A DNA stretch of 31,471 nucleotides, taken from contig NC_057752.1 of the NCBI RefSeq assembly GCF_004010195.1, positions 7,755,651-7,787,121 of the forward strand. Reading direction: 5' to 3'. A program made the translations under genes and the position numbers. A model generated the notes under the pieces. It did not search any database, was not told the DNA's origin, and saw nothing but the letters and a program-made list of their open reading frames with translations. The stretch's first letter is position 1. Every line of letters starts with the position of its first letter. Source of the DNA: Chiloscyllium plagiosum (lineage: Eukaryota). Below are positions 1,501 to 31,471 of the stretch, one piece after another.

Positions 1501-1600
1501 AAAAACAAAATACAGTGGATGAGAAATACTCAGCAGATTTGTCAGAATCTGTGGAGAGAAAAACACAATTAATGTTTCAGGTTTATGACCTTTCATCGAG
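1501..1600 (-). mobile_element. Decayed PLE pLTR end with degenerate hammerhead motif
   Basis: Minus strand reads ctcgatga-aaggtc-ataa-acct-gaaac-att, followed by ttctctccacagattctgacaaatctgctgagtatttc. Homologous to 6536-6660. Confidence 0.65.
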
Positions 1601-1894
1601 TGTGCATACCTTTTCACTCTATCTTTTAGCAGGAACATTTACTATATGTATGAGAGAAAAATATTCACATTCACAGACTACTCCACTGAGCTTTCCCACT
1701 GATTCATGCTCTTGATTATGACTTTTTTACAAAAGGTCATACAAGTACCAAGAAGCTTAAAATTAGAATGACATTGAATTTACAGCACAGCAACTAGTGA
1801 TTTGGCTCAGCTGCTCTATATGTTGGTGTTTATGATGTACATAAGCTTCCTCACACTCTCCTTTATCTAACCATATCAATAGAATCAATACTGA

Positions 1895-2132
1895 ATTATA
1901 AAGAGGAAGGTTTTCAGCAATTTGTTTTCCCTGAAGAGTTTAGACTATGGCATACCGTACTGCAAGTAGCTATAATATTAACTCCTTCACAATTGGATAA
2001 ATATCTAAAGAAAGCATAAGAGGTTGCAAGAACAGAGAAATTGGAGTAAACAACTGCAATGTGGAATTAGCACAGACATGGTCACAACAGGTCAAATGGC
2101 CTTTTCCTATGTTGAAATTCTAACAATTCTAT
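1895..2132 (+). mobile_element. Old CR1 LINE 3' end
   Basis: ttggataaatatcta...ggtcaaatggccttttcctatgttgaaattctaacaattctatg is a typical CR1 3' UTR with an attctatg tail. Contains copy 2 of the 53-bp repeat. Confidence 0.6.
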
Positions 2133-4206
2133 GGTAAATCCTGTCGATAAATAATATTAATGACTAGACTCTGTTGGTGTTGTAATAGGCAGGACACACA
2201 AAATGTTTGTTCATTAAAATCAAGGTGGTGTGCAAATTCTGTGCACTTTGTGTAATATTCACATGATGTTTCAGTACTGAATGGTGATATCCATATTAAA
2301 CTTGTGGTATATGACAACAGAGGTTTTCATATGTTTGTGTGCAAATATATCAAAATGTTCACAGATTGCAATGGTAATTAGAGGTCAGATTGTCTTAGAC
2401 AATCAATATGATTTGTTTCTCTGTAACACAAGACATACCGTCATTCTGCAGTAGTGAGAGTTTGTCAGTTACAAATCTTCTTAATTATCAGCATAATTTG
2501 AGCTGCTGTCTAATATCAATACCCTTCTATGACAAGAACTCAGTTTAACCAGTCTGCAGTAAATAATAATAATTCTGTATGAAATCATTTGCCTCAGAAA
2601 TTAATGGGTCAGATTTGACTGCCTACCTGTGCCATGGATTGTGTATCTGTCCCGGTGCCAACTCCTCTGCCACGTATATTGTTAGCCAATCTAGGTTACC
2701 TTAGATATTATTTTCCATCAAGGAGATAAAGTATGAGAGCAGAGGAAGTTGTGCCAGTGTTATTTACGTATCTTTCATCTGTGAATATGTTTTGTAAATA
2801 TTGTATACACTGGCAAAAGTAGTGAGCCCCAGCATGGGGGCAGAGTTCACATGTGAGGCATATTCCATTGTCAGTTTTTACATTGAATACTGTTCAGTGA
2901 AGTCTTGCCACAGTAATAGAATACAATGAGCCAGCTTACAGCTTTATATAACTCAAAGGATTAATTAAGAGGGCTTTGAGTAGCAATGCAATGATAATGA
3001 CCAAGAAATTAGAGCATAACATGAATCCATATTCAAGTTTCAATGCCATTTTTATGCTGGTTATGATTTTTAAATCTACATTAAATTGAATGTGAATAAA
3101 GATCCTATTAGAAATGTGTCCCATGAGAGTTGCCTTAAACAATTATGACAGCAATTTTTAAACGTTGCAAAATGAAGAGATGAAAGTGAAAGGTCTTTAA
3201 TACAGAACATCATCAAGGTTTGAAGACAAGATAGAATGAGAAGTATGGATTTTGTAATGCCAGACTCATGTTTTAAAAGCCTGAAAATTGAAGGAAGAAG
3301 AGATGAGGGAAATGAAGAGTTCCATGTTTTGAGGATCTAAGAAGAAAGTGGCCTGACATCCGCACATTGAGCATAAAATGAAAATAAGGAGCACGTGAGA
3401 CAGTTTATTTGTAGTTCAGAAGAAACAATACAGGAAGGTTTAGAGTCTCTTAGGCCATTATGGAATAGAATAAAGAAAAGTATATAATGGTGAGACCTGT
3501 AAGCTCGAGGTTTTTGTTTTGTCCGTTGGTGCAGTGTAGCAAGAAAGGTGCCTAAAGACCTTCATCCTGATATGCAATCATTATTTAATATCCTAGTTCG
3601 AAACAATTCAGTTAGGCAATGTAGTCTGATGCCACCTGACATGTCCTTAGGTACTCTGGATAAATTCTTGGATGCAGGTAAAGAAAATTGCTGCATCTTC
3701 TAGTCATCTTTCACCTTAACAAGCGCAAACAAGGCAATGTGTGGGATAGTTTTCTTTATGTATAGCTCTGAAGAACAGCATAATGCCTCTTTTAAGCTGC
3801 ACGATTGATCATGTGTTGAGAAAGTGAAGAAGGGGTAAATCAACAATTGGTGTTGACAGTTGATGTCTTGGGACCTGTCAAGGGTAGACTCAGGGACACA
3901 TCATATTAGAAAGTGAGGCCCCAGACAGTGCTGAATGTTCCTGCCAAGCACTGAGCAGCAACATTGTATTGCAGAAATCATATCTTAAAATTAGTCTTTT
4001 GCACTATGTATTTGTTTAGAAAACAAATACTATGCAGCTTGACAAACCCTTATGTAATTTACTTGTCCATTCAGGTGTATTTAAATTCATGGCAATTTAG
4101 TTCAAGTCGAGTATAAAAAGCCTTGTACGAAAAGGTGTAAAGGAATTTAGGTATAAGCTGAATTCCTGAATACTGCACCTGCTATTGTACTGAGCCAAAC
4201 TAATAG

Positions 4207-4291
4207 GGGTGGCATGGTGGCTGTGTGGGAGTTTGCACGTTCTCCGTGTGTCTGCGTGGGCTTCCTCCCACAATCCAAAGATGTGCAGGTC
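4207..4291 (+). mobile_element. HE1 (V-SINE) fragment, internally deleted, running into the gap
   Basis: gggtggcatggtggct is joined directly to the V-domain gtgtgggagtttgcacgttctcc...tccaaagatgtgcaggt. It lacks the tRNA-like segment present in 6715-7044. Confidence 0.85.
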
Positions 4292-4791
4292 NNNNNNNNN
4301 NNNNNNNNNNNNNNNNNNNNNNNNNNNNNNNNNNNNNNNNNNNNNNNNNNNNNNNNNNNNNNNNNNNNNNNNNNNNNNNNNNNNNNNNNNNNNNNNNNNN
4401 NNNNNNNNNNNNNNNNNNNNNNNNNNNNNNNNNNNNNNNNNNNNNNNNNNNNNNNNNNNNNNNNNNNNNNNNNNNNNNNNNNNNNNNNNNNNNNNNNNNN
4501 NNNNNNNNNNNNNNNNNNNNNNNNNNNNNNNNNNNNNNNNNNNNNNNNNNNNNNNNNNNNNNNNNNNNNNNNNNNNNNNNNNNNNNNNNNNNNNNNNNNN
4601 NNNNNNNNNNNNNNNNNNNNNNNNNNNNNNNNNNNNNNNNNNNNNNNNNNNNNNNNNNNNNNNNNNNNNNNNNNNNNNNNNNNNNNNNNNNNNNNNNNNN
4701 NNNNNNNNNNNNNNNNNNNNNNNNNNNNNNNNNNNNNNNNNNNNNNNNNNNNNNNNNNNNNNNNNNNNNNNNNNNNNNNNNNNNNNNNNNN
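4292..4791. other. Assembly gap (500 N)
   Basis: Run of exactly 500 N. Confidence 1.
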
Positions 4792-4993
4792 CCCCCACAA
4801 CCACCCACCTCCTTACTCCTACACTTCCTATCCACCACCACAGAAGTCAGTCTTGAATGCAGCATATTCCTGACTGTGTGTTATTGGATTTATTCCAATC
4901 CACCAAACATATTCCGGATTATATCATGTCATACTGTGTGACACATCCTACCCCAGGTATTCTCTCACGTGTCACACCTTTCACTCAGTGTAA

Positions 4994-5453
4994 TCATAGA
5001 GTCACTCAGACAAACAGCATAGAAACAGGCCCTTCAGCCCACCATGTCTGTGCTGACCAACAGACACCAAACTAAACTAATCCCATTTACTTGCACTTGG
5101 TCCAGAGCCTATTATACTCTGGCAATTTGGTCTTAGAAATGCCAGCCATGGGGAAGAGATTCTCACAATCTACACTGTCCGTGCCTCTCATAATTTTGTA
5201 CATGTCAGTCAGAACCCCCTCAGCCTTCTCTGCTCCAGGGAAAACAAATCCAGCCTATCCAGTCTCTCCTCATAACTGAGACTTTCCATTCCAGGCAACT
5301 TCCTGGTGAATGTCCTCTGCCTCTCCTCCAGTTCAATCACATTCTTCCTATAGTATGGTGACCAGAACTGTGCTCTGTAGCCTAACCAATGTCTTATAAA
5401 ATTGTAACAAGACGTCCTTGCTCCTATATTCCACTCCCCAGCTAAACAAGGCC
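4994..5453 (-). mobile_element. CR1 LINE 3' fragment
   Basis: Reverse complement gives CR1 ORF2 C-terminal remnants (QFWSPYYRK, SYEERLDRLDLFSLEQRRL) and a 3' UTR ...gggcctgtttctatgctgt...gactctatg. Confidence 0.88.
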
Positions 5454-5454
5454 T

Positions 5455-5615
5455 TCATCCCATTTTCTGGATCACTCTGCCTTTATTCCTGATGAAGGGC
5501 TTTTGCCCGAAACGTCGATTTTGCCTGTCCTCGGATGCTGCCTGAATTGCTGTGCTCTTCCAGCACCACTGATCCAGAATCTGGTTTCCAGCATCTGCAG
5601 TCATTGTTTTTACCA
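5455..5615 (+). mobile_element. PLE pLTR 3'-end fragment (non-autonomous)
   Basis: Homologous to the pLTR at 31360-31450: attcctgatgaagggc...gcccgaaacgtcg...ggatgctgcctga..tgctgtgct.ttccagca, plus a terminal tail ccagcatctgcagtc. Confidence 0.85.
5485..5520 (+). ncRNA. Minimal type I hammerhead ribozyme motif, intact core
   Basis: CUGAUGA (5489-5495), extra A, stem II GGGC-UUUU-GCCC, GAAAC, GUC cleavage triplet (5514-5516), self-complementary ACGU stem III. Stem I is weak (AUUC/GAUU). Confidence 0.75.
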
Positions 5616-6056
5616 CAATGTTACAAAGAGTCGATTTTATTTTTATATATTTACTTTGCACAAAAAATATTATTTCGCACCAAAATTATCATCTAACCTT
5701 CAAAGATTTATTTGCTATTATACATTGGCACCTATTATTTAAATTCTCTCAGGTTCATTGTACACAGATTTTCTGTTCCAGCATATAAACTTCTGTGGCA
5801 GCCTGAGGATTTGCAGTATTGCTGTTGTGATTTTGTAGATGTCTCATAGGATTGTGAAAACTGTTTTAAGAAGCCTTCTTGGATCATCTGTAAATTCCAG
5901 AGGGTTTGTACTAAAACACTAGGACAATTTCAAAGCGCTGTGGCCGTTTTGGTATGAGCAATAACTCATTTAAGGATTTCATGGAAGATGGAATTTTATT
6001 ACAGCTAAATTTGGAGCAATCCACTTTTACTTATGAACCTGGGTGGAACATTCACA

Positions 6057-6392
6057 GGTGGTGTGATAATGGTAATATCACTGGACAAGTTACCCAGAGG
6101 CCTAGGTAAATGCTCTAAGGATGTAGGCTCATTTTCCACCATAGTAGGTAGTGAAATTTGAATTCAGTGAATGAAATCTGTAATTAAACGCTAACTTAAT
6201 ATGACTATGAAAACATCTGATTCACAAATGCCCTTTAGGGAAGGGCATCCTTACCTGGTCTGGATTACATACGACTCCAGACCTATGTGGTTGATTCTGA
6301 ACTTCCCTGTAAATAGCTTGGCCAGCTGTTCAGTTCAAGGGCAATTGGGGATGGGCAAAAACGATTGGCGAGCCAATGTTGCCCACATGTTG
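6057..6392 (+). mobile_element. tRNA-derived SINE (same family as 21334-21632)
   Basis: Degenerate tRNA-like head, body ...tttgaattca...gccctttagggaagg...tgtggttgattctgaac, and tail tcaagggcaattggggatgggcaa...gcccacat shared with the LINE at 11612-11925. Confidence 0.7.
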
Positions 6393-6535
6393 ATCTGTAA
6401 CTTCATTTCACACAGCAGCTTACGCTGCGTTTGGGTTGATGATACTCTGATCACACACCACCAAAAGAGAGTTCGGATTAGATGTGCGTGTACAACTTTC
6501 TTCTAATGATTCAATTTAAAATTGAACTTTTGAAA

Positions 6536-6660
6536 TTCTGAAGAAGTTATATCGGATTTGAAACATTAACTCTCTCTCTGTCTCTCTCTCTCTCTCTCCA
6601 CAGATGCTGCAAGACCTGCTGAGTTTCTCTACCACTTTCTGTTTTGGTTCCAGATCTCAG
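6536..6660 (+). mobile_element. Decayed PLE pLTR end with degenerate hammerhead and an expanded (CT)n tract
   Basis: ctgaagaa...gaaacatta, (CT)n at 6570-6598, then ccacagatgctgcaagacctgctgagtttctctaccactttctgttttggttccagat. Confidence 0.7.
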
Positions 6661-6714
6661 GTGGCATGGTAGCACTTGGGCATATTTCAGCACATGGGGC
6701 ACAGATTTAATTTT

Positions 6715-7044
6715 GGGCGGCATGTTGACTCAGTGGTTAGCACTGCTGCCTCACAGCGCCAGGGACCTGTGTTTGATTCCAGCCTCGGGCAACTGTCTGT
6801 GTGGAATTTGCACATTCTCCCTGTGTCTTGCGTGGGTTTCCTCCGGGTGCTCTGGTTTCACCCCACAGTCCAAAGATGTGCAGGTTAGGTGGATTGGCCA
6901 TGCAAAATTACCCATAGTGTTTAGGGATGTGTAGGTTAGGCGCATTAGTCAGGAGAACAGGTCTGGGTGGGTTACTCTTTGGAGGGTCGGTGTGGACTGG
7001 TTGGGCCAAATGGCCTGTTTCCAAACTGTAGGGATTCTATGATT
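6715..7044 (+). mobile_element. HE1 SINE (V-SINE superfamily), near full length
   Basis: tRNA-like head (tgactcagtgg A-box, gtttgattcc B-box), V-domain (tgtgtggaatttgcacattctccc...gggtttcctccgggtgctctggtttc...ccacagtccaaagatgtgc), CR1-derived tail gggccaaatggcctgtttcc..ctgtagggattctatgatt. Confidence 0.92.
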
Positions 7045-7108
7045 TCCAGCATTGCAGGATTTTGCTTTTATTACAATAGCCTGAATGATTGTTTGATCTC
7101 ACTGATAA

Positions 7109-7312
<204 letters not shown>

Positions 7313-8327
7313 GTAGAGGCACCTTTGTGTTATTTTGCAGACCAACCAGGGAAGAATGTGTTTAGTGTCGATCAGAAGGTCAAATGGAACACAGAATTAG
7401 CAAACCCCCAAGATCCTAACTGTTCAGTTGTTCAGTAGATAAATCAAAGATTCTTTTGCAATTTTATTTCTTGCTTCAAAATAACTTTTTCTTCATTTTA
7501 GTGTATCAAGCTATTAACAATGTGAGAGCAGTATGTAAAATACTGTGATAAGCAAAAGCACTGGCGCTAAACAACTGTATATAAAAATCCAGAGGGTTAA
7601 ATAATGATGAACACCAATTAACTAACATGGCACAATCTGACTTTATGGCAGGTATGTGTGCCAGAAGCATATCTGACATTAACTTTAATTAAATTTCAAC
7701 CCAATAGTATGCTTTATATAATTTGACAGGTAAAGCTCCATTATTTAACCTAAAAAACAAAAGTTCCAAATCCTGATACTGCATCTTAATTTTTTTTCCT
7801 GCTTTATACAAGTAACCTATTCCACTGGATGATGTCATGTTTATATCAGCAGTGGAAAGAGCCTGGCTGTCAATTAACCCATGATATCATCAGTGGTGAT
7901 ATTGTCCACTGAGATTATGGGCAGCAATATAAACTTGGTAAAAAATTGCCAGGCTCAATCTGCCTGTTCTAATAGTTCAGGTGGATGTTAAAGAACCTAT
8001 GGCACTACTTTCTCCCTTAGCTAGCAACCTGAATAAACTATTGACGGGCCAATCATCTCATTTCTATTTTTGGGATCTTGCTTGCGCAAAATGGCTGCTG
8101 CATTCGCCTATGTAACAACAATCACTGCACTTCAAAGAAGCTCATTGTGATAAGGCGCTATGTTCATGCAAGTCTCTTTTCTCTTGCCTAATTTGAATGG
8201 TGCTGTTTTTCTACGTATTAACCATCTATATTCCCAGCAATTACCAAGATGAAATTTATGAAATATTTGTTCTTTTTGCTGGCTGCACCCTGTTGCTAAT
8301 ATCACTTTAATTTGCAAAATAAATAAA
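7313..8327 (+). other. Probable 3' UTR of the C1QL gene, end uncertain
   Basis: Follows the stop codon and is AU-rich. Candidate poly(A) signals are ATTAAA 7688-7693 and AATAAA at 8032, 8318/8322, 8580 and 10134. Confidence 0.45.
7950..8180 (+). mobile_element. SacSINE1-like DeuSINE fragment
   Basis: Deu-domain-like caggtggatgttaaagaacctatggcacta and tttttgggatcttgcttgcgcaaaatggctgc...acaacaatcactgcacttcaaa, with tail aaggcgctat...atgcaagtct. Confidence 0.72.
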
Positions 8328-9496
8328 AGGTCCAAGAGTTAGCATAAAAATATAAGCGTGAAAATGTTTACTTTCAACATTATTTAGGTAGGAGTTTCAC
8401 CTCCTGCAGTTCACCAGTCCTAGTCTTACCTTTATCATAAACTGGCACAGTCCTGTTAGCAGACCATCACTTCCACTCTTCTAGGTGTTGTGAAGTCTTA
8501 TCATGGAAGTCAGCTTCCGTTTATCAGTAAGATGATTTGCCTTTATCCTTGACAACATTGTATGCCTTGTCAGTGAACCAATAAACAAAGGAAGGTTCCA
8601 ATAGAAAGAAGAAATATAAGAGTATATATTCTTGATCAGCATTGCTCTCATGCAATTAAAATGTTTGTCTGAAATTACTGTGTGCTTTTTTAAAATTCAA
8701 TTGCACACACAAATTTCAGTATTAACATAATAAGTATGTGTATCAAAATATTTATAGGACATTTGTAACTCTGCATGAGAATCTTAATCTTACTAAACCT
8801 GGCTGAAGTTAGAATTTGGCAGAATCTGGTGATACCAAAATTCTGCAACAAACACAGGAGGTCTTTTAAGTGTTTTTTTCTGCTTGGAATTGCTGTACAA
8901 TTGGTCACTGACAGAATGAACATTGTTAATTACTCACCAGAAAGATGAGCAGTTCTGTAATTCTGAGTGACTTACAGATGTTTTGCCTGTATAAATTACC
9001 CAGAAAACCACACAGATCTGCAAAATCATTGAATGGGACTCCATAAATGAGAATGCTAAAAATGCTTAACTTGTTGACTAGTGCATTCAAGTTCTCAAAA
9101 TTGATTTTGACCTTGTTTCCCATGTTTGCACACATTTATGAATATTGCAGTTGAAATTCCTTATGATTAAATTATTAGTTTCTTCTAATCTTGAGTATGC
9201 ACCCCATGGAGCGCAAGGTTAATAGTGATTAATTCTATGAAAAATACAGTAGACTAGAACATCACCAGCCTGAGGCTGTGTGTGATATCTGATGGTCCTT
9301 ACATGAATTCAAAATCTTCTCTTAACCTAGTTTTAGCACTGTGTCAAATTAAGTTAGAGTTTTAGGGGCCCCCTTGCAAATTCTGCACAGATAGACATTC
9401 AAAATGGCTAAAAATGCTAATTATTTAACACAAGAATTAATAATAAGATGATACCTTCATGTAAATAGGGCTAATGTAATTGAACTGAAAGGAAAT

Positions 9497-9875
9497 GAAG
9501 AAGGATGACAGATGACTTGATAGAGGTGTACAAGATGATGAGAGGCGTAGATAGAGTGGATAGCCTGAGACTTTTTCCCAGGCCAGAAATGGCTATCAAG
9601 AGGGGACACAATGTTAAGGTAATTGGAGGAAAGTTTAAGGGAAATGTCAAAGGTAGGTTCTTTACACAGTGAGTGGTGGGTGTGTGGAATGCACTGCTAG
9701 CAGTGGTAGTAGAGTCAGATACATTAGGGACATTTAAGCGAATCTTGGATAGACACATGGATGATAGTAAAATGAAGGGATTGTAGGTTAGTTTGACCTT
9801 ACAGTAGGATAAGAGGTCGGCATAACATCGAGGGTTGAAGGGCCTGTATTGTGCTGTACTGTTTTATGTTCTATG
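9497..9875 (+). mobile_element. CR1 LINE 3' fragment
   Basis: Translates to RRMTDDLIEVYKMMRGVDRVD..LFP...RGHNVKV...RFFTQ*VVGVWNAL...TFKRILDRHM, followed by 3' UTR gaagggcctgtattgtgctgtactgttttatgttctatg. Confidence 0.92.
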
Positions 9876-10999: not shown

Positions 11000-11605
11000 C
11001 TCAGTTCAGGTTTTAGCTTGAGTTCAATTTGTGGGTTCAAGTTCCAATCCAGTAGTTGAGTACCTGATAGGCTGTCATTCTGGTGCAGTATTGAGGGAGC
11101 GATGCAATGTCAGAGATTTCATTTTCAAACCAAGTTGGTGAGCCAGTTCTGTTCAAATGAATGCTAAAGTTTCAGTGGCCATCATTCTCCCAGTCAACTA
11201 TGCGAAAGTGAGTACTGCAGATGCTCGAGATTAGAGTCTAGATTAGAGTGGTGCTGGAAAAGCACAGCAGATCAGGCAACATTCGAGGAGCAGGAAAATC
11301 GATGTTTTGGGCAGGATCCCTTCATCAGGAAGGGCTTTGTTACCCTTCCTGATGAAGGGCTTCTGCCCGAAATGTCGATTTTCCAGCTCCTCAGATACTG
11401 CCTGACCTGCTGTGCTTTACTAGTACCACTCTAATTGACTTCATTCTCCTAGTGCCTTAGCTGATTCTCTTTCCTCAAACAACACACCAAAAGCAGATTA
11501 GCTTGTGAATAATTTCATTGAATTTTGTGGGATTTAGTGTGTGAAATGGCTGCCATAACTGTCTACATAACAGTCACTTTACTTCAAAATAATGTATATG
11601 AAGCA
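11000..11605 (+). mobile_element. SacSINE1-like DeuSINE interrupted by a PLE-derived fold-back element
   Basis: B-box-like ggttcaagttcc (11034-11045) and gtgcagtattgagggag. After the insertion it continues cctcaaacaac..aaaagcagatta...tttgtgggat...aaatggctgcc...acttcaaaa. Confidence 0.65.
11198..11440. mobile_element. Palindromic non-autonomous PLE derivative with two back-to-back hammerhead motifs
   Basis: Arms 11235-11334 and 11343-11440 are reverse complements around an 8-nt loop, and each carries ctgatgaaggg..gccc(g/a)aaa. Flanked by tcattctcc(c/t)agt at 11182-11194 and 11441-11453. Confidence 0.88.
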
Positions 11606-11611
11606 CTTTTT

Positions 11612-14616: not shown

Positions 14617-14872
14617 ATAGAGTCATAGAGATGTACAGCATGGAAACAGACCCTTCGGTCCAACCCGTCCATGCCGACCAGATATCCCAATTCAATCTAG
14701 TCCCACCTGCCAGCACCCGGCCCATATCCCTCCAAACCCTTCCTATTCATATACCCATTCAAATGCCTTTTAAATGTTGCAATCGTACCAGTCTCCACCA
14801 TTTCCTCTGGCAGCTAATTCCATACACGTACCACCCTCTGCGTGAAAAAGTTGCCCCTTAGGTCTCTTTTAT
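14617..14872 (-). mobile_element. Young CR1 (HER1-like) LINE 3' end, 5' truncated
   Basis: atagagtcatagagatgtacagcatggaaacagacccttcggtccaac...ccctctgcgtgaaaaagttgcccc. The reverse complement gives GNFFTQRVVRVWN*LPEEMVETGTIATFKRHL. CpGs are retained. Confidence 0.92.
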
Positions 14873-19039: not shown

Positions 19040-19624
19040 GACGTTTGACAATACAACACCTCTGTTGAAAAGATGGCACTAAGACAAGAATAATAAAAGA
19101 AACTGCTATTAGATTGAAATGATAAGAGATGCTAGTGAAAAGACAGTTGGCTGCACTTGTATTTAATTGAATGAAAAAGGAAATGTTAGTTCCAGCACAT
19201 CCAAGAATGTTTTTAGATCAAAAATATTGCTTTTATTGATTCTTATTCTCTGATTTTTCTTACTTTGTAGCATGTAAAGTGAGGTTGTGTGTCACTATTG
19301 CCAGCCTGTATTTTCCCTGAGATGTGCTGAATGCATCTATTACTCAGCCATGAGCCCAATTAAGCGCAAAATCATCTATTTAGTTTGATTACTGCAGCAA
19401 CATGTTTTTTTTTCCATACATGACAGAATACATACAACTTCATGTATGGAACTCAATAAGCCAACAAATAAGAGTTTCTAAAATCCAATAGAGGGCTTTT
19501 CTCACTTGATCACTTCAGTACATTTACAGTCCCATCAATAGCCAATTTTAAGGAAAAAGGAAAGCAAAATCCTATATTGATAATGGCAAGATTACAGTAA
19601 CCGTAAAGATGGTTTGTTTGAAAT

Positions 19625-19720
19625 AAACCTTAAAATGCTGAGAATCTGAAATAAAGACAAAATGCTTTAAAAAGCAATAGCAGGTCTGACAGCATCCAAA
19701 TAAAATATATGTTTATGTTT
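19625..19720 (-). mobile_element. Highly decayed PLE pLTR terminal fragment
   Basis: aaatgctgagaatctgaaataaagacaaaatgct...agcaggtctgacagcatcc is related to the reverse complement of 6600-6660. Confidence 0.5.
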
Positions 19721-20995
19721 TGTATAGAAAAACATCAAAACAAGAGATTTTAGGGAATCAACTGAATTCTGATACTCAGAATGTTGCACACTGTGACGAA
19801 TAGAAACTGCCTGTTGAAATTGAAACTTTCTACCTATGAATGGTCAAGGATTAAATATATTGAGATTGATCCTTGAACAAGTGGATTTTTTTCCATGCTA
19901 CTATCAATGTCATACTTTAAGATTTATTGCGCTATTAACATGCTTTCTTCTTTCTCTGCACATTTGGTTGAAAACTATGATCATACTTAAAGGGAAAGCA
20001 GCTACTAGCCTTCCCAGAGCTCTTTAATACTCTGCAGTTCCCTGCGTCATTTGATTTGAGAATTTCAGTACAGCTCCCATAATACCCTCAAATATAAAGT
20101 TCCCATTATAGTTTAATTTTCATAATTTCTCCCACACAAGGTAAATATTGTTCAGTGGATGTTTTGCACTGGCTGAGAGCAACTACTGGATACAGTGGAG
20201 ATGCTATTAGCAGATTTGGGCACCACACTATGATTTTGTCTTGTTTGTCACTAAAATTGCATTGAAACCTGTGATGTTCTATATATTTTAATTATTATTT
20301 CAACTGGGTCAAGACTAACCAAATAGTTTTGAATGAAGCATTCCAATCACCAAAGCTCTCCGATGGTAATGGTTGGGTGATACAAATTGGCTAGATATAT
20401 CCTTTCACCCCTGAAATGTGGACTCAACCTCACCACAGACTGATGGGTTTAAACGTCATCGCTATCTGTTGTGCACCAGAGTTTAATGTACTAGGTCCAT
20501 CTTCAAATACTTCCCAGTGGATGTATTATCAGTATTTTAATATTATAATATTATTAATATTTTGGCCATCTTACCAAATTAGCCATTGGGGTTGCTGGTG
20601 AATAAAATGGCACATTGGCACAGGGTGATCTACTCAGGTTAGTACATTGTTGGAACTTCACACAGCAGCTAGCTGTGATAAAGCTGACCCAAGAGTGCTC
20701 TGTGCTGAGAATGGGTGCCAAGAATGGTTTCCTATTGTGAAAATTTATTGGACAAAGGAAAAGCTCTCAGATTGCGATGTTAAGAGCAGTTATGAATAAT
20801 AATGAAGGGTCATCTGCTGACCAAAGGATTGATAAAAATCTCTTCAGCAAAATAATACTGGCACCATTAATTGAAGTGATGCTGCCATTCGATTGCTAAT
20901 CCTTTGGAAGGTGTGTTATTTTCTTTGTGAGAAGGAAACAGGCTAGAACTGCAATCCTGTGATGCTCATGTAATCTAATAATCCATTTTGGTGAA

Positions 20996-21007: not shown

Positions 21008-21333
21008 GCAGGGATGGACAAGGAGCAGGGGGGAAAAAATTTCCTGAACAAAAAAATGCTGTGAGCTTTCCTCTATAATTAATGACTAACAAAAATGCAT
21101 TTTTGCAAATGCCACATTTTGAAGTTCTGTGTTCTGAGGTTTTCTTTATGGGTCATTAATTACAAAGGAAAACAAATATTTCCCCATTTTGAGAGGTAAT
21201 TTACTGAAGTGTCTCTCTTCTAATATATAAATGGACACTGGTGTCAATATCTATCTTCAAACAGTGTTGAGAGATTGTATTGCCCCAGTGTATGTTATAA
21301 AGCTCTGGCATTGTACCTTGGTGGCTATTTAGT

Positions 21334-22109: not shown

Positions 22110-22545
22110 AAATTAGGAAGCACTTCAAAAGTGATGGGCTAATCAAGGACAGTCAGCACAGTAAAAACCAGGTCATGTTTGACTAATTTAAGTCTTTTGA
22201 GGAAATTACCAAATTTATAGATAGGTAAATAATGAGCTGACATATTTGAACTTTGAAAATATTTTATAAAGTAACACATGTAAAACTTGTGAAAATAAGG
22301 CCTATGCTATTAATGGCAAGTGTGGCGTGGATAGAGAAATGGTTTATGGATAGAAAACAGAGCATAGAAGTAATTGGATTTTATGTTGTTAATGGGATGC
22401 TCAAGGGATCTTTGGTGGTACTATCTTGTTCTACATACAGATAAAGGATTTAAAAGTGGCCATACAAGAGGGATCAACAACAAAATCTGATGATACCAAA
22501 TTATTCATTCATAGGATGTGGACATAGCAAATTGTGAGGAATAAC
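22110..22545 (+). mobile_element. Old CR1 RT-domain remnant
   Basis: GLIKDSQH..RSCLTNL..FEEITKFID..KVTH..AWIEKWFMDRKQ..DDTKL. Confidence 0.72.
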
Positions 22546-22559
22546 ATACATGTTATTGG

Positions 22560-23560
22560 TCATTCTCCCTAGATTGTATTTTTAGAGCAATTTAGCTCAA
22601 AATATGTCCCTTTGTTCTAGGTTCCCCAACTCAAGGAATAACTCATTCCTTCTATGTTTCATGCTAATTCTCTCAGTTTTTTTAAACACTGTAACATCCT
22701 TATATTCCAGGGGAGATAACTCAAGTTTACTTAGTTGCTCATTATAATTATTTTTTCATCCCATTTAGTACCTTGATGAATCATTACTGGACTTTCCTCA
22801 GTGGCAGTACATCCATCTTAAGGTGTACTCTGAGAACAGAACACAGTATTCAAATAAGGTCTAACCGGCACTTGATAACTGCAATGGTACCTCCTTGCTT
22901 TTATATTCTGAATCACTTGAGATGATGCCCAGCAATCTATTGGCTTTTTGATCTCCTTCACAGCTCTTAGCAAGTTTTTTTAATGACCACTAGGATACCA
23001 AAGTACTTTGCTTTATCATTTAGATTTTACTCCATTCTTTGCATCCGTAAAGTACTACCTTGCACTTTATTACACCTGCCATTGAACTACTCAAGCATAC
23101 AATTTGTGGTCCTTTTGCAATTTCCTTTTCTTCACATTTCACTATGTCTTCCAGCCCAGTGCCATCTGAACATTTAGATATGCCCTCCTTTATTCCAAAA
23201 CTAAAGGCAAATTTGAAAACCTAGGCCCTCAGTACTGATTTACCTCCCAGTCAGTTTCCTATCCATATAATAAGGCTATCTCCAATTCCATGCTCGTCCG
23301 ATTTAGTTAGCAATACCTTGTGCAGGGGCTTAAAAAAATTCAGTTTAGAACATCTATTTATACTCTTCTAGCCACCATCTGAGTCACTCTGTCAAATTAC
23401 TCCAGTGTTGGTTCGATGTGAGCTATCTGTCACAGAACTATGTTAATTTGCTTTCATCAGCTTATTTTATTCCAAGTACTCATTTACTCTATGTTTGATG
23501 TTGAATTTTAGTATTACTGCCAGTACTGATCTAATTGAATGTTGAGATTCTAGGTTTTCT
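22560..23560 (-). mobile_element. Old CR1 ORF2 remnant
   Basis: Reverse complement contains LLGIISSDSEYKSKEVPLQLSSAG*TLFEYCVLF (cf. YKSKEV.LQLY..LVRP.LEYC). Boundaries are vague. Confidence 0.6.
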
Positions 23561-23774
23561 CCAAAGGCACATCGAATACAAAAAAACTGTGCAAGATATT
23601 GGGGAGGCTGCAAGTGCAGTTTTATGGAGTGGTGAACACCCCATTGTAGGAATGATATTGAAGCAATGGAAACATTACAACATGAATTCATTCTGTTGAT
23701 GCCACGGCTAAAATGTTATGGTTGACTTGAAGATCTAGGCCTGAATTCACTGAATACAGAAGTGAAGGTGAGAG

Positions 23775-24068
23775 TTTATAAAATAGAAGTGTCCTAAATT
23801 ATGAAAGAATTTTCAAGAAAAATTTCATTGCTTGCCTTGTGATAATAAATACAAAAAGGGAGATTAAGGGGTGCAAGGGATTATTAGAATATGGGTTGCA
23901 ATGCCGCAAGTATTGATTGAAGCTGCAATATGATACTTGAAAAAAATTATAATTTGAAGAAAATTGTTAAAACGGGTAAAGGGCAAGAGCAAGAAAATGT
24001 AGAGCTAGCACATACCTGATGGACCAAGTGGCTTCCTTCTGTGCTGAAATTTCTAAGATTCCATGAAC
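23775..24068 (+). mobile_element. Old CR1 3' end
   Basis: Ends gagctagcacatacctgatggaccaagtggcttccttctgtgctgaaatttctaagattccatg. Confidence 0.55.
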
Positions 24069-24996
24069 TCTGCAAAGAACAGAAATTGTAATTTGCCATT
24101 AATCTGTGCGTGAATTTGTCTGATCACCAACTACAACTTCCGCAGTGCAATTTACATCATTTTTGCAAGATTTACATGGATTTTCCTTTAAAGTTCCAGC
24201 GGAAAACTGGTGAAATTTACCTTGTGGACAGAAAGTCATTTTTGTTTTGCTTTCAAATAATTGTATAAAGGCTCAACTTATTGACCTTACATCCAAGATT
24301 AGGGAGATTATCCCTTCTTATTTGCATTTTATTTTCATGGTGTCAAAAACACTGATCCAATGACTGAAGTATAATGTGCGAGAGTATTCATATCTATACA
24401 TGTAATCAGCTTGTATATCTTGTGATGATCTCATGCATAGAATGTTACTGTGTACAGTACTAGATATTCTGTTGCCATGGCTGTAAGGTCAAATTGCAGT
24501 ACAGAATGACAAGTGGCCCTATTCACATGCATGTGATAGTTACATTTAGCTTATTGTCTTGAATTGGTTTAGTCTCATTTTTGAATTAGTTTATTTATAT
24601 TATCTAGTTTACTTGAAATGTATTGCAACTTGTTGGCTTTTTCTGAATTATCAGGTGACAATTCAGGAAACAATTGTAATATCTGATTTGCATAAAACAA
24701 ACAGTCAAATGAATTTTCAGAGACCTTGTACAAATAATCAAAGCCCAAATTTTTGTGGTCCCAGAATCAAAACTGATGTCTGCAAATACTAGTCACCTAA
24801 TTGTAACCTAACATGGAATTCACAGATGTGCAAGTTAACACGTTATTTTGGCAAAATGCTATCTGAAGTTCCAATTCTGTTACTGAGTTGTAGAGTAATC
24901 CTTTTGGAATTCACACACTTGGGATTATAATTAGAAAACAAAGAGACCAATAAATTGCAAGAGGAACAAAAAGTCAATTGCCAACGACTCCATATA

Positions 24997-25742
24997 AGGT
25001 GTTGCATTTTTGGTAAGACAAACCAGGACAGGACTTAACACAGTTAATGGTAGGCCCTAGGGAGTGTTGTCAAACAGAGAGACCTAGGTGTGCAAGTACA
25101 TAGTTCCTTCAAAGTGGTGCCACAGGTAGACAGGGTAATGATCAGAACATTGAGTACAGGAGTTGGAATGCCATGTTACAGCTGTACAAGACATTTGAAA
25201 GGCCACGTTTGGAGGACTGCATACAATTCTAGTCACCCTACTATAGGAAGGATGCTATTAAACTGGAAAGGGTGCAAAAAAAAAGATGCACAATGATGTA
25301 ACTGAGACTGGAAGGTTGGAGTTATAAGGAGAGGCTGGATAGGCTGGAACTTTTTCCCTGAAGCATAGGAGACTGAGGGGTGATCTTAAAGAGGTTTATA
25401 GAATCATGAGGAGTATAGATAAGGTGAGTAGACAAGGTCTTTTCCCTAGAGTTAGGGGAGTCCAAAGCTAGAGGGCCTAGGTGTAAGGTGAGAGGAGAAA
25501 GATTCAAAAGAGATCCGAGGTGGAACTTTTTCACACAGAGAGTGGTGCTTGTATGGAACGAGCTGACAGAAGAAACAGTAGAGGCAGGTACAATTACAAC
25601 ATTTAAATAGGTACATGGATAAGAAAGGTTTAGAGGGATATGGGCCAAATACAGGCAAATGGGACTAGTTCGGTTTGGGAAATCTGGTCTGGATGATTTA
25701 GGCAAAAGGGCCTGTTTCCATGTTGTATGACTCTGACTCTAT
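24997..25742 (+). mobile_element. CR1 LINE 3' fragment (~750 bp)
   Basis: KVLHF, QRDLGVQVH, MLQLYKTFERPRLEDCIQF*SPYYRKD, SYKERLDRL, RRLRGDLKEVYRIM and NFFTQRVVLVWNEL, with tail gggcctgtttccatgttgtatgactctgactctat. Confidence 0.93.
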
Positions 25743-27714
25743 AAATGTCCCACTGTAGACTGTGAGCGTTGAATGTATCAGATGAAGTTCAGTCCCACTG
25801 GTTTCTCATTGTTAGTGCATATGGTATGTAACCTACATGTTGTCATTCCGAGAGTTGAAACAACATTACAATTCTGGTACGTCAATGTTAGATTATAACA
25901 AACAGAAGAATCTATTGAAAATTCAAGGTGTGATAGTTCCAGGAGCTGACATTTAAAGGGGAGTGTTACTTGGGGATAAATAACTACAATATGCAGCAAT
26001 CTTTCTTTTGTCCCGATCCACTGTGTGGGGAGAGATTTTGAAATACATAGTATTTTGCGAGGAAAGATTCTCTATTATTTTCACCAATAATCAGGGTCCA
26101 AGAGATCTACCATGTCAGATACCACTAAAATAAAAGGCTTGCTTAAATCACGTAACTGATGTGTCAATCTCCAATTGTGCTCTTACATTGAGCAAGATAT
26201 GGACTCAATCCCAGATACAGATCCTACAAAATTGATTCTGAGAAGTTCTATGGCATCTTTTAGCCAGCACTTGAACTTTCAGTACTGTAGGGAATGTTGA
26301 AATTTATTTCACATTATTTTTCACATACTCAATAATGTTACCTGATAATTTTCAGAGAAGTGTTTTGAGTATAAAGTAATTAAATATCATAAAATGTGCC
26401 AAGCTGGGTCAGGATATATTGCAAAGATCTTACATGCAGGCTTAAGAAGACCGCAAAAGCATATTCTGAAAAATTTCTGAACTGTTGAGTGCATTAAAAG
26501 GTGTAACACACTAAGCTTAATTCCCGTTTTTTCAACTATTCTGTTTACACTTTATTACAGCACGCTGCCCCCATTAACATGAAACATTTCCATATGGTTG
26601 CTAAGTACTGCTCTGCAAGTTCACCCTTAAAAACAAGATGGGGAAAAGTACCAGACCAAGATTGTAAATTGTGGCAACTGACAGGATGAGTACTTTCCTG
26701 AACACTTGTATACACATTTACTCTGTTATACTCATGCAGATATACACGCACAACATTGTACGTATTACTTCTTTCAGTTGAGAACATGGATATGATTATT
26801 GTTACAGAAAATTTCAAGTGCACAAATTGGCACTTTGGTGAGAGTTTTGGGGCAAGGCAGGAACACCCTGTTTTTAAACTCTGCCAATTTGCTGCCAATG
26901 TTTGTTTATGCTACAGAAAAAAACTGCTGCAATACAAACTTTAGCAATCCAAAGTTTTGTTTCCCTGTTAGTACTTTAAATACTTATTGGAGACTGTGCT
27001 GGTATTTTCGGGGTGAAAGGGAGAAATATATGGTTGCATTGCCAAGTTCTCTCTCCATCTCTATCTCATTCTCTGTTGCTATTTATTGTGTGAGTGCCTT
27101 TTTCTCTTTTACACTTTCCCATTTTGCTCTTTTATACACTGTCTCTGTGGCGCCTGTATTGCATTAACTCCAGGATGAACTTTGCAATGTAGTGAGTTGT
27201 GGTTCTATTCATCCTGCTTTCCTGGCTGAAGGTGGGTTGAGGTGAAAACATGAGGTTTTGAAGAAGGCAAAGTGTTTTTAAAAGTTTGGGGGGAGAGGCG
27301 GGAATATAAGAAAAGAAAGCCTTGTGTGTTAACTATTACTAGTAGGCTTATCTTGGAAACGAATTGAAGTTGGTCTGGCTGAAATTTCCACAACTTCCCA
27401 GATTTATTTATGTAAGTGTTTACAATTAAATGTTAGTGTGATAAACATCATTACCTGCATGATTGTCTGTGGTATTTTTCAATCATTTAAAAATTAAAAT
27501 AATTTTGATATTCAAATGATTTTATTAAGTCTTTGTTCATTATAAATTTGCTTTCTTACGGAAAATATTTCTATGTCATTCAAGATATTATAGTTCAACA
27601 TGGATTCCTGTTGCGTGTATATGAGTGATCTGTCTAATAAAGCACCATTACTTATCTTATTTTCTGCATTCTTATTTAAATGTCCTTTTGCTTGGATTAT
27701 TTCTACTCTGTCTG

Positions 27715-27810
27715 AGAACCAAAACATGTGATGCTGGAAAAGCACAGCTGGTCAGGCAGCATCCGAGGAGCAGGAAAGTTGACATTTCAAGCACAAGCTC
27801 TTCATCATTC
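27715..27810 (-). mobile_element. PLE pLTR end with degenerate hammerhead motif
   Basis: tgctggaaaagcacagctggtcaggcagcatccgaggagcagg. The minus strand reads tgatga-a-gagc-ttgt-gctt-gaaat-gtc. Confidence 0.8.
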
Positions 27811-27961
27811 CTATGATTTTAAAAAGTTCCAAGTGCTGGAAGCCTACAATAAAAAACAGCAGGTGCTGGAAGTGCACAACATTTATATTAATATCTAATA
27901 GGTTAGCATTTCATGTGTAAATCATGATTATACCAAGTCTATTCTATGGATATATAGTATC

Positions 27962-28176
27962 TAAAGTTAAAGTCACCATCATCCGAGATGACTGTTCTCT
28001 CACACAGAGACCGACAACTAGAAGTGAGCTTTAACCAGAGGCTCACCACACCTCAGGTAAAGGTTGATCATGCAGGACCACCATGGTAAACTCAGCCAGT
28101 GCAGGAACTGAGCCTGTACTGTTGGCACCACTCTATGATATTGACCAGCTGTCCAGCCAACTGAGCTAATTAACCC
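27962..28176 (-). mobile_element. tRNA-derived SINE
   Basis: Minus strand begins gggttaattagctcagttggctgga (A-box) ... ggctcagttcc (B-box-like) and ends atggtgactttaacttta. Confidence 0.65.
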
Positions 28177-28435
28177 TCACTGCAAGTATGCATCAAAGTA
28201 TAACACATATAAAACAATATACAAAAGCTGCAAATGTGTAAATCAGAATGTATAATAGACACATTTATAGTGCACATATATTTAAGAATATATAATAGAG
28301 ATCAATATGTACAAAATATAAATAACTACTAATATTCAGATATCAAAATACAATTAGTGAGCCAGTTGGTAACTTCACAAGTAGTTAGGTGTAAGTCTAA
28401 GATACTCCCTAGCAACAAGTGAAGTGGACATTGAT

Positions 28436-28532
28436 TTAGATAACTTCTAATCAATCTGTTCAGGGATGCTATTACACCCTGCTGGAACAGTGGCTCAAAG
28501 GTAGGGACACTACCGCTGCACCAGAAAAGCCC
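28436..28532 (-). mobile_element. Short tRNA-derived SINE remnant
   Basis: Minus strand gggcttttctggtgcagcggtagtgtccctacctttgagcca has an A-box-like head, and the B-box appears deleted. Confidence 0.45.
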
Positions 28533-28751
28533 TGGGCACCCAGTTACAATGAAATCCATAGTTTGCACAAGGTGCTCACAGTTATAGTGTTTGTTGTCTA
28601 CCATCTTTCAAAGGTTCAAGAAATCACTGCATTTGCTGTGCAAGGTTCTGAAATGGTTCACTGTATACCATTGTTTCTGGGGTAGGCTAAAACCTGAGGA
28701 GGGCTTTGTGGCCAAGAGAGCACATCTCTTGAACATTATTAGCAGTTTCTT

Positions 28752-29344
28752 TTTATTCATAGGCTGGGTCAGCATTTGCTGCCTGTCCCTAGTTACCCTT
28801 AAGAAGATGGTGGTGAGTTGTCTTCTTGGTCTGCTGCAGTCCATTTATGTAGGTATAGCAACAATGCTGGGATTTTGACCCAGTGACACTGAAAGAATGA
28901 TGATATATTTCCAAATTAGGATGGTGTGTGGCTCAGAGGGGAACTTGCAGGTGATGGTGTTCCCATGCATCTGCTGCCCTTGTCCTTCTAGATGGGAGGT
29001 TTCTGGGTTTAGAAGATGCTACCAAAGAAGCTTTGATGAGTTTCTGCAGTGTATGTTGTAGATAGTACACATTGATGGTAACATCACTTGTGGAGGGATT
29101 CGATGTTTTTGGATGGAGTTCTAGTCAAGTGGACTGCTTTGTCCTGAATGGTGTTAAGCTTCTTGATTGTTTCTGGAGCTGACCCATCTAGGTAAGTGGG
29201 GAGTATCCCATCACACTCCTGATTTGTGTCTTGCAGATAGTGGATAGGGAGTGTGTTAGTTGTGGCAGAGTTCTTAGCCTCTAACCTGCTCTTGTAGCCA
29301 CTGTACTTAAAACTGGCTAGTCCAGTATCTAGTCATTAATGGTG
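28752..29344 (-). mobile_element. CR1-group LINE 3' fragment
   Basis: Minus translation TVATRAG*RLRTL..LSTICKTQIRSVMGYSPL..IKKLNTIQDKA (cf. YKxxVRxxxEY C-terminal motif). Same family as 11612-11925. Confidence 0.82.
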
Positions 29345-30105
29345 AGATTACAGTTTTATCTTTCTTGAAAAAAAAAGGTTATTATTGTTCAATAAAGTAT
29401 ACTTACCTTATGTCCATTGTAACTCTGGACAACTAGAAAGGGAGTGATGCTTAGAAACATAACTCAATCTCAACTTAACATCTCTGGCCCATACTGTATG
29501 TGCCCAGCTTGTTGTCTCCTGAACAGCAGGCAATCTGCAAGTGGCATGTCTTTTCATCAGCACCAATATTACCCTCTCATACATGCATGTTTGTGTATCT
29601 CAGTGTCACCTTGTGTTTAACATTGAAAATAATTTGCCAAAATCTAACCCATGTAATACTTCAAAGTCTTATAAAAAGAGCCTCGTGATATTCACCCCTC
29701 AATTAGACACAGAACCCTGAGGCCTTTTCATGTTTGTCCAAAAGAATCAATAAAATCTTCAGATGGATAGATCAGCCCTCAGGCTTTGCTGAGCAATATT
29801 CAGCTGGTGCAGCAAATTAACACTTGCATAGCCAAGTGATTACTCATATTCATTCTCTCCAGTTCTGTTCATGAATTATGTTGATGAAGCTAGTTTGTAG
29901 CTCACACATTAACTGCAGAAAATAGATCTCTGTTCTCCCATTGAAAATGTACAAATTCTGAAAGGTAACATTAATACAGGTATAAGGCATGCAGTGCAAA
30001 TGGGAGAAGTGCAGCATCAATAAAAAAGGGGGTGAATAGAGATCAAAGTTGAAACTTTATTGCTGGAACAGCACAGCAGGTCAGGCAGCATCCAGGGAAC
30101 AGGAG

Positions 30106-30141
30106 ATTCGACGTTTCGGGCACAGGCCCTTCTTCAGGAAT
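30106..30141 (-). ncRNA. Minimal type I hammerhead ribozyme motif, intact
   Basis: Minus strand reads AUUC-CUGAAGA-A-GGGC-CUGU-GCCC-GAAAC-GUC-GAAU. Confidence 0.8.
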
Positions 30142-30273
30142 GAGCAGAGAGTGTTCAGCAGGAGAAGATAAAAGGTAGGGAGGAGGGACTTGGAGGAGGG
30201 GAGTTGGAAATGTGATAGGTGGAAAGAGGTCAAGGTGAGGGTGATAGGTCGGAGTAGGATGGAGGCGGAGAGG

Positions 30274-31122
30274 TCAAGAAGAAGACTGCAGGACAGGAAG
30301 GCGGTGCCGGGCCGGAAGGATCCAGCTGAGACAAGGGGGGGGGAGGGGGATGAAGAAACTGGTGAAGTCCAAGTTCATCCCCTGCGGTTGGAGGGTTCCC
30401 AGTCGGAAGATAAGACGCTCCTCCTCCGACCGTCGGGTTGTTGTGGTTTGGCGGTGGATGAGTCCAATGACCTGCATATCCTCGGTGGAGTGGGAGGGGG
30501 AGTTGAAATGCTGTGCTACAGGGTGGTTGGGTTGATTCGTCCGGGTGGCCCAGAGGTGCTCTCTGAATCGCTCCGCAAGTAGGCGGCCTGTCTCCCCAAT
30601 ATAGAGGAGGCCACACCGGCTGCAGCGGATGCAGTAGATGATGTGGGTGGAGGCCCAGAGGTGCTCTCTGAATCGCTCCGCAAGTAGGCGGCCTGTCTCC
30701 CCAATATAGAGGAGGCCACACCGGCTGCAGCGGATGCAGTAGATGATGTGGGTGGAGGCCCAGAGGTGCTCTCTGAATCGCTCCGCAAGTAGGCGGCCTG
30801 TCTCCCCAATATAGAGGAGGCCACACCGGCTGCAGCGGATGCAGTAGATGATGTGGGTGGAGGCCCAGAGGTGCTCTCTGAATCGCTCCGCAAGTAGGCG
30901 GCCTGTCTCCCCAATATAGAGGAGGCCACACCGGCTGCAGCGGATGCAGTAGATGATGTGGGTGGAGGCCCAGAGGTGCTCTCTGAATCGCTCCGCAAGT
31001 AGGCGGACTGTCTCCCCAATATAGAGGAGGCCACACCGGCTGCAGCGGATGCAGTAGATGATGTGGGCGGAGGTGCAGGTGAATCTGTGGCGGATATGGA
31101 AGTTTCCTTTGGGGCCCTCCAA
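30274..31122 (-). CDS. PLE GIY-YIG endonuclease domain fragment (no ATG, N-terminally truncated) with 5 in-frame copies of the GIY-YIG core
   Basis: GPKGNFHIRHRFTCTS, then [HIIYCIRCSRCGLLYIGETGRLLAERFREHLWA]x5, HPVAQHFNSPSH and RRSEEERLIFRLGTLQPQGMN. The conserved Y, YIG, R, EH, E and GxN residues and the Cys/His insert typical of PLE endonucleases are present. Confidence 0.9.
   Translation of the reverse strand: MEGPKGNFHIRHRFTCTSAHIIYCIRCSRCGLLYIGETVRLLAERFREHLWASTHIIYCIRCSRCGLLYIGETGRLLAERFREHLWASTHIIYCIRCSRCGLLYIGETGRLLAERFREHLWASTHIIYCIRCSRCGLLYIGETGRLLAERFREHLWASTHIIYCIRCSRCGLLYIGETGRLLAERFREHLWATRTNQPNHPVAQHFNSPSHSTEDMQVIGLIHRQTTTTRRSEEERLIFRLGTLQPQGMNLDFTSFFIPLPPPCLSWILPARHRLPVLQSSS
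30547..31071. repeat. Tandem repeat, 5 x 105 bp
   Basis: Units start at 30547, 30652, 30757, 30862 and 30967. Units 1-4 are identical, and unit 5 differs at 31007 and 31068. Confidence 0.98.
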
Positions 31123-31369
31123 CCACAGGGGATGAACTTGGACTACACCAGTTTCTTCATCCCCCCTCCCCCCACCTTGTCTCAGCCAAATCCCTCCAGC
31201 CCGGCACCGCCTTCCTGACCTGCAGTCTTCTTCTTGACCTCTCCGCCTCCACCCTACTCCGACCTATCACCCTCACCTTGACCTCTTTCCACCTATCACA
31301 TTTCCAACGCCCCTCCTCCAAGTCCCTCCTCCCTACCTTTTATCTTCTCCTGCTGAACACTCTCTGCTC

Positions 31370-31405
31370 ATTCCTGAAGAAGGGCCTGTGCCCGAAACGT
31401 CGAAT
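31370..31405 (+). ncRNA. Minimal type I hammerhead ribozyme motif, intact
   Basis: Stem I AUUC/GAAU, CUGAAGA (31374-31380), extra A, stem II GGGC-CUGU-GCCC, GAAAC, GUC with predicted cleavage after C31401, palindromic ACGU stem III. Confidence 0.8.
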
Positions 31406-31471
31406 CTCCTGTTCCCTGGATGCTGCCTGACCTGCTGTGCTGTTCCAGCAATAAAGTTTCAACTTTGATAT

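Follow-up and report, generated by a model that had tools for sequence, protein, structure and literature searches.

Eight hammerhead-like motifs, numbered H1 to H8 in order of position, lie in a 31,471-nt stretch of Chiloscyllium plagiosum DNA (contig NC_057752.1), the whole of which is called the window below. With a probability of roughly 85%, these motifs are minimal type I hammerheads situated in the pseudo-long terminal repeat (pLTR) of endonuclease-bearing, probably Neptune-type, Penelope-like elements (PLEs), carried by six dead, 5'-truncated insertions of different ages. A sequence-only reading had placed eight cores at 1569, 5489, 6538, 11301, 11349, 27781, 30110 and 31374, and the motif is indeed found in all eight of the intervals extracted. 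The motifs are not eight separate copies, since 11301/11349 (H4/H5) and 30110/31374 (H7/H8) are each a single head-to-head insertion, nor do they form the smooth decay series that had been proposed: the older copies of the larger family and the young H7/H8 pair are 79-82% alike to one another.

When both strands of the whole window are scanned with a strict descriptor (CUGANGA, 0-1 extra nucleotide, a stem II of at least 3 bp, GAAA), four of the eight motifs are recovered, at 5489+, 11349+, 30114- and 31374+, the last two being arms of one insertion and hence not independent. None of 200 dinucleotide shuffles reaches four matches, the mean being 0.285 with a stem of at least 3 bp and 0.08 with at least 4 bp. 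A scan of the window against Rfam returns eight weak matches at E<=10 and no hammerhead family among them, an outcome to be expected because the motifs lack helix III. Beyond H1-H8, an nhmmer profile picks up two faint remnants (Table 1), the best match in the reversed window having an E-value of 0.23.

Two sequence families can be separated, in agreement with the at least two subfamilies suggested earlier. Family A (H2, H4, H5, H6, H7, and H8) has 76-96 nt in common at about 80% identity, and family B (H1 and H3) has a 3' block in common with family A at 73-78% over 36-55 nt, the longest such match given being that of H3 with H6 (73% over 55 nt, E 2e-6). The motifs have no separate helix III and follow the CUGANGA/GAAA/UH build. 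An extra A stands between positions 9 and 10.1 in all six family-A copies, and G10.1-C11.1 is found in five of them (G.U in H6; H1 has A-U). The build earlier ascribed to all copies, i.e., CUGANGA or a remnant of it, an extra A, a short stem II and GAAA, stands for most, but the 11301 motif (H4) reads AAAA through G12>A, stem II is unpairable at 6538 (H3), the CUGA box is broken at 1569 (H1), and C3 is missing at 27781 (H6), where five further changes occur, among them C11.1>U, C15.2>U, and G1.1>A. Likewise, the GUC cut-site triplet is present in the six family-A copies but reads AUU in H1 and H3. Homology and position point to H3 as a putative hammerhead.

The connection with PLEs is direct for family A. 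In the youngest insertion, the remnant of a GIY-YIG endonuclease ends 137 nt upstream of the H7 core (30137), and the order seen here is endonuclease, 3' untranslated region, hammerhead, an end of about 70 nt, and an optional tail of about 30 nt. H7 itself is intact, with stem I formed by 30138-30141 and 30106-30109, C3 at 30137 and C17 at 30110, and the element ends 68 nt past the cut site. The best relatives of the endonuclease among 14 matches are two proteins named from Chiloscyllium punctatum, P0001 and P0002 (83% and 79% identity). A CX4CxxC linker precedes the endonuclease in P0002 and in P0008, a 902-aa protein with both reverse transcriptase (RT) and endonuclease; the RT match is at E 8.5e-11 in P0008 and weak in P0002, and the RT of the window copy has been lost to truncation. 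According to PMC8557442, a CX2-5CxxC linker between RT and endonuclease marks the Neptune and Nematis clades.

The same architecture recurs elsewhere. Eighty metagenome loci were fetched with an endonuclease alignment, 63 of which extend 400 nt or more downstream; in 22 of the 63, the endonuclease match is followed by a strict hammerhead in sense orientation (at 100-134 nt in 19 cases), an antisense one occurs in none, and shuffles give 0.16%. The metagenome hammerheads match the build in the window, with the extra A, a 4-bp stem II, ACGU, and GUC. One metagenome PLE family (L006, L009, L010, L041, and others) carries the hammerhead about 100-130 nt downstream of the endonuclease match; positions 10.2/11.2 form G.U or A-U, and stem I is GCU/AGC; L019, L026, and L055 show other forms of stem II. 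In viral contigs, the exact family-A pattern had no match, and the four distant loci given by an endonuclease search were not used.

The insertions bear the marks of endonuclease-bearing PLEs. As described in PMC3846280 and PMC8557442 (Fig. 2), such insertions show 5' truncation, an adjoining inverted truncated copy, target-site duplications (TSDs), an optional tail of 30-40 bp on one end, and a palindrome at the inverted junction. H4/H5 combines an inverted truncated copy, a one-sided tail, and a TSD: its 93-nt inverted arms stand 8 nt apart and differ at 14 of 93 positions, H4 has the tail of about 30 nt and H5 does not, and a 13-bp TSD with one mismatch flanks the pair (11182-11194 and 11441-11453). 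H1 is abutted at both ends by a 7-bp exact direct repeat (1494-1500 and 1603-1609). Unlike the insertions of those reports, most units here are reduced to the last 100-140 bp, and one copy contains a candidate five-fold in-frame repeat of the GIY-YIG core. In H7/H8, the 355-nt arms (30042-30395 and 31115-31469) are 96.6% identical; all 12 differing positions are found within the inner 195 nt, the outer 160 nt being identical between the arms (p about 0.0008, for a split chosen post hoc), and gene conversion, the use of two templates, or the assembly might be the cause. Dating of the insertion by arm divergence was rejected as unreliable, the differences being confined to that inner part.

At the 5' side, H6 starts inside the core, H1, H4, and H5 start 2-6 nt upstream of it, H2 19 nt upstream, and H7 and H8 hundreds of nucleotides upstream, so that the start is no more than about 6 nt from C3 in four of the eight motifs (three of the six insertions); no copy starts at the cut site. 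At the 3' side, H2 has a tail at about 5587-5614, and a tail remnant of H3 lies at about 7041-7069, past an inserted element resembling a short interspersed element (SINE; 6660-7040). As the latter splits H3 from its tail, H3 is the older of the two.

Core, stem II, and the ACGU stem III are all intact in three of the eight motifs (H2, H7, and H8, i.e., two insertions), and at least one of these parts is damaged in the other five. All core letters are kept in four motifs (H2, H5, H7, and H8); the core is damaged in H1, H4, and H6, and H3 keeps the letters without stem II. The palindrome ACGU is kept in H2, H7, and H8, and the remaining five motifs each depart from it by a single CpG-type change. 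Between C3 and 1.1, H2 does not differ from the youngest copy outside loop II and N7, and its stem I is weakened by a U.U pair. Three CpGs occupy essential positions (11.1/G12, 15.2/16.2, and C17/1.1). Across the four older family-A copies, 6 of 24 CpG positions are altered, each as expected from deamination, whereas none of the 36 core positions outside CpGs has changed (Fisher p=0.003; as the cores served to recognise the copies, this test is biased). Most of the motif damage is CpG decay.

Much of the stem II covariation quoted earlier is CpG decay as well, the GCUU form partly so. The covariation alignment comprised 25 sequences, 20 of them distinct (6 from the window and 19 from the metagenomes); H3 and H8 were excluded, H1 stands one column out of register, and three of the 22 metagenome motifs were left out for their other stem lengths. 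In this alignment, the pairing of stem II is kept (96%), but its changes are one-sided relative to the commonest pair, mostly wobbles, and apparent compensation is found in stem I instead, with double changes at three of four pairs that essentially amount to one event between the families. Slid controls were 14-46% paired, against 84%. At 10.1 and 10.4, H1 genuinely departs from family A in having A-U pairs, as seen in this one copy.

Reads from four runs (three DNA and one RNA) were placed on 29780-30650 (871 bp) at 80% likeness. The three DNA runs, which represent two organisms, put 43,924, 27,879, and 20,895 contigs on this stretch, against essentially one contig each on the flank; summed contig depth does not give a copy number, but these figures show a very large family, as had been supposed. 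The rate of one copy per 4 kb does not carry over to the genome, as it comes from six events in one window that had been selected. Coverage is deepest at the hammerhead and the 3' end, and the adjoining upstream bin is lower by a factor of 3.8-7.4. At 30141, where stem I has its 5' edge, loose ends accumulate with little agreement among them (0.32-0.40; 208 reads, X21; 125 contigs, X9), and sequence differences between subfamilies upstream of this point may contribute to the pile. Loose ends before 30039 share a constant extension of about 30 nt, the tail. Among the 40 differences listed out of 200, the stretch from C3 to C17 has two, each in loop II, and stem I has one, at 1.3, where the U.U form is the majority. 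In organism A, contigs from two runs agree fully with the left junction. In organism B, a single contig (from one run) runs along the flank as far as 30045 and lacks the element over the 499 nt or more that follow, so that the H7/H8 insertion looks lineage-specific.

Several points weigh against the reading of all six insertions as dead PLE ends of Neptune type. TSDs are readable at two insertions (H1 and H4/H5); none was found where one was sought at H2 and H6, the candidate at H3 is doubtful, and the right flank of H7/H8 lies beyond the end of the window. No strict motif is present in 41 of the 63 metagenome loci. The window copy is truncated just after the position of the linker, which is seen only in the relatives; the H7/H8 element is probably of Neptune type by its sequence relatives, and the Nematis alternative stands, the linker being common to both clades. 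Family B is tied to PLEs by the common 3' block and a tail-like end, with no endonuclease link in the window, so that the earlier description of the motifs as PLE termini holds directly for family A and, more tentatively, by way of this block for family B. The 36 unchanged non-CpG core positions could reflect selection as well as ascertainment. Finally, the RNA run is 2% of one polyA single-cell library that was not built to capture cleaved ends and is a poor test of cleavage. What it contains nonetheless counts in favour of the reading: 2615 of 12.96 million records match, on both strands (about 57:43 at the peak bin); 93% of the 2615 run on into unlike sequence, and 140 have at least 99% identity. 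No place listed in this run has piled starts or ends, the cut site included, in a library ill-suited to cleaved ends, and the pattern fits read-through of embedded copies.

With regard to mechanism, the literature describes nicking of AT-rich DNA by the PLE GIY-YIG domain and reverse transcription of uncleaved RNA, begun at either of two sites within it that lie downstream of the hammerhead, unprocessed RNA being the main substrate (PMC11167929). Copying from uncleaved RNA is supported here in that every copy reaches past the cut site on its upstream side and no pile of ends is listed there. On the PLE reading, internal priming downstream of the hammerhead would generate tailed and tail-less ends from uncleaved RNA, synthesis would usually end at or just past the 5' edge of the hammerhead, and fold-back would sometimes follow and build a mirror arm. 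Weak cleavage by the motif, as a dimer or assisted by protein, may take place in an active tandem element; the dispersed copies would be passive cargo, transcribed inside host RNA and decaying neutrally.

The 5' boundary near the hammerhead would be either the 5' end of the RNA or a stall at its structure. In D. virilis, transcription begins 46 nt ahead of an intron of 75 nt (PMC2377424), the end of which meets helix I (PMC4209133); as this intron ends at helix I, the D. virilis start also lies near the hammerhead. A tentative possibility, judged to have distinctly less than an even chance, is that the short stubs are run-off ('strong-stop-like') cDNAs: RT would proceed from the tail sites of the upstream terminal repeat to an RNA 5' end a few bases before the hammerhead, and each transcript would yield a product of 100-140 nt that is integrated far more often than the full element. 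If so, the hammerhead would mark the start of the PLE transcript and not a processing site, and shark genomes would have been filled with 10^5 or more hammerhead motifs by this route.

The abrupt fall in depth just 5' of the hammerhead, the pile at 30141, and the TSD-flanked 102-bp unit of H1 could also be accounted for if the units of about 100-140 bp, instead of arising by truncation of full elements, formed a SINE-like, non-autonomous family in their own right, which had master copies of its own and was moved in trans by PLE protein. This is rather unlikely: the 5' ends vary from inside the core to hundreds of nucleotides upstream, a related terminus is present on an endonuclease-bearing copy, and no internal promoter was identified in the units.

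It is improbable that dispersed intact copies are active ribozymes cutting host transcripts as intermolecular dimers or with protein, and thereby affecting expression, e.g., H2 in the probable C1QL intron. Such activity would be in keeping with the full core and self-complementary ACGU of H2, H7, and H8, with the presence of the family in polyA RNA, and with the protein-assisted cleavage shown for an anole element (PMC11167929), whose hammerhead needed protein for cleavage and was dispensable for insertion in vitro. However, in the predicted folds of intact copies, stem II forms and stem I has a probability of at most 0.06 with 30-60 nt of flank, and inside the inverted insertions long hairpins abolish both hammerhead helices (stem I 0). 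The partners of an inverted pair are on opposite strands and therefore unable to form a sense dimer, and no intact same-strand partner lies within 4.8 kb of any copy in the window, the nearest same-strand neighbours being H2-H3 (1.0 kb, H3 broken), H6-H7 (2.3 kb, H6 broken), and H3-H5 (4.8 kb). A minimal hammerhead from a schistosome was inactive as a monomer and weak as a dimer (PMC4209133), and the RNA run has no listed end pile. With five of eight motifs damaged in addition, the 'ribozyme population' inferred earlier is not supported.

Animal non-LTR retrozymes, i.e., tandem hammerhead repeats spreading via circular RNA, resemble the units of the window in being short and non-coding, with type I hammerheads and kinship to PLE ends (PMC7229834; 10.64898/2026.07.22.740005), and the 2026 preprint (10.64898/2026.07.22.740005) describes retrozymes derived from PLEs in its one chondrichthyan. 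That the present motifs belong to them is very unlikely, since the head-to-tail arrays, canonical and efficiently cleaving hammerheads, and circular RNAs reported for retrozymes (PMC7229834) are not seen in the window, where the pairs are inverted, the hammerheads are minimal, and the sole tandem array codes for endonuclease and has no hammerhead in it. Chance matches to a short motif, a reading prompted by the lack of an Rfam hammerhead match and by two very decayed motifs, are refuted for family A by the shuffles and the common sequence, and hardly deserve consideration overall.

The kind of motif, its extra nucleotide and palindrome, the solo and opposite-strand copies, and numbers in the thousands per vertebrate genome are already known (PMC4209133). 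The motifs of the window resemble the minimal hammerheads described there in their type I core without helix III, the extra nucleotide between 9 and 10.1, G10.1-C11.1, the palindromic 15.2-16.2, and the short helix I, and also in occurring mostly singly, from truncated PLEs, or in pairs on opposite strands. That report gives about 4,000 copies in coelacanth and 9,000 in Xenopus, and includes Neptune elements of fish. They differ in their shark-like host, in a stem II of 4 bp as against 7-8 bp in Schistosoma, in the NUU triplet of family B, and in an abundance that may be higher. In Poseidon PAc of the green anole (PMC11167929), the hammerhead is similarly followed by two alternative ends about 100 nt on, copies are made from uncleaved RNA, and no RNA-seq ends fall at the cut site; PAc belongs to another clade, the Zn-finger linker of the relatives of the present element being indicative of Neptune or Nematis. 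A whale shark preprint describes intronic expansion of Penelope-like elements. No literature on PLE hammerheads specifically in sharks was found by a search that had subscription papers, Repbase, and the supplements of PMC4209133 and of the 2026 preprint outside its reach.

The published pattern is thus extended to a shark-like genome, and genomic counts of ribozyme motifs would largely be counts of dead retroelement ends. The role of the PLE hammerhead is not settled in the literature (PMC8557442; PMC11167929), and a large family with young intact copies and a 5'-end pile at the ribozyme edge would make possible a genome-wide test of selection and of the start of the template RNA.

Table 1. 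Features located in the window (positions counted from its first nucleotide).
Feature	Position	Strand	Description
H1	1501..1602	-	solo family-B terminal stub of about 102 bp; profile match 1603-1500
H1 hammerhead remnant	1571-1600	-	CUGA box broken; stem II AGGU/ACCU; stem III ACAU; triplet AUU
H2	5470..5614	+	family-A stub; core intact; C3 5489, C17 5516
H3	6534..6659	+	family-B stub; core letters kept; stem II unpairable; triplet AUU; CT microsatellite inside
C1q-like (C1QL) last coding exon	7133..7312	+	AG acceptor 7131-7132; Pfam C1q, E 2e-11
H4	11195..11334	-	tailed arm of head-to-head insertion; G12>A, G16.2>A, C10.4>A
H5	11343..11440	+	tail-less arm of the H4/H5 insertion; C15.2>U
Decayed terminal remnant	19620..19740 (approximate)	-	nhmmer E 0.003; blastn E 0.004 to H3; hammerhead unrecognisable
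H6	27712..27807	-	family-A stub starting inside the core at U4; stem II GAGC/GCUU
Possible decayed terminal remnant, weak	27850..27920 (approximate)	-	nhmmer E 0.03
PLE main copy (H7), young, 5'-truncated	30042..31116	-	endonuclease C-terminus, 3' untranslated region, hammerhead H7, tail-less end
GIY-YIG endonuclease remnant	30274..31116	-	Pfam GIY-YIG; CCHH residues; no RT
GIY-YIG core tandem array	30548..31072	-	five in-frame 105-nt units; units 1-4 identical, two differences in unit 5
H8, inverted 5'-truncated arm	31115..31469	+	hammerhead intact; C3 31374, C17 31401; window ends 2 nt later

The 105-nt array may be a real expansion or a product of assembly; as four of its units are identical while the arms of H7/H8 differ by 3.4%, it either arose after the insertion or was produced by the assembly. 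The stretch onto which the runs were placed includes one of its units, and the junction of the array does not figure among the 15 joints listed out of 38. At the centre of the H4/H5 palindrome (11314-11365), a short stretch resembles stem II and the loop of the sense copy, and each arm opens with CCCTTC, the complement of its own GAAGGG, which looks like fold-back priming. Just 5' of H6, 27808-27817 looks like a 6-10-nt inversion of the expected sequence, possibly a micro mirror arm. After the cut site, family B has a splice-acceptor-like stretch (1540-1570 on the minus strand and 6565-6602 on the plus strand; TTAAC or TTAAT, a pyrimidine tract, CACAG, AT), the AG of which is missing from family A. 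PLEs hold introns near the hammerhead.

The C1QL exon has C1q-like protein 2 as its best match in the PDB (E 3e-33), and the preceding intron probably contains H1-H3, with H2 and H3 in sense and H1 in antisense orientation. Heads similar to that of the SINE-like element near H3 are found at 4208, 6716, and 15719, and ARAGORN found no tRNA in the window. An assembly gap of exactly 500 N spans 4292-4791. The two copies of a 56-nt direct repeat (794-849 and 2016-2071), 1222 nt apart, are 96% identical. Dispersed repeat fragments at 5008-5380, 14627-14870, and 25223-25734 are alike among themselves, H2 following just after one of them, and are presumably the 3' ends of long interspersed elements (LINEs).

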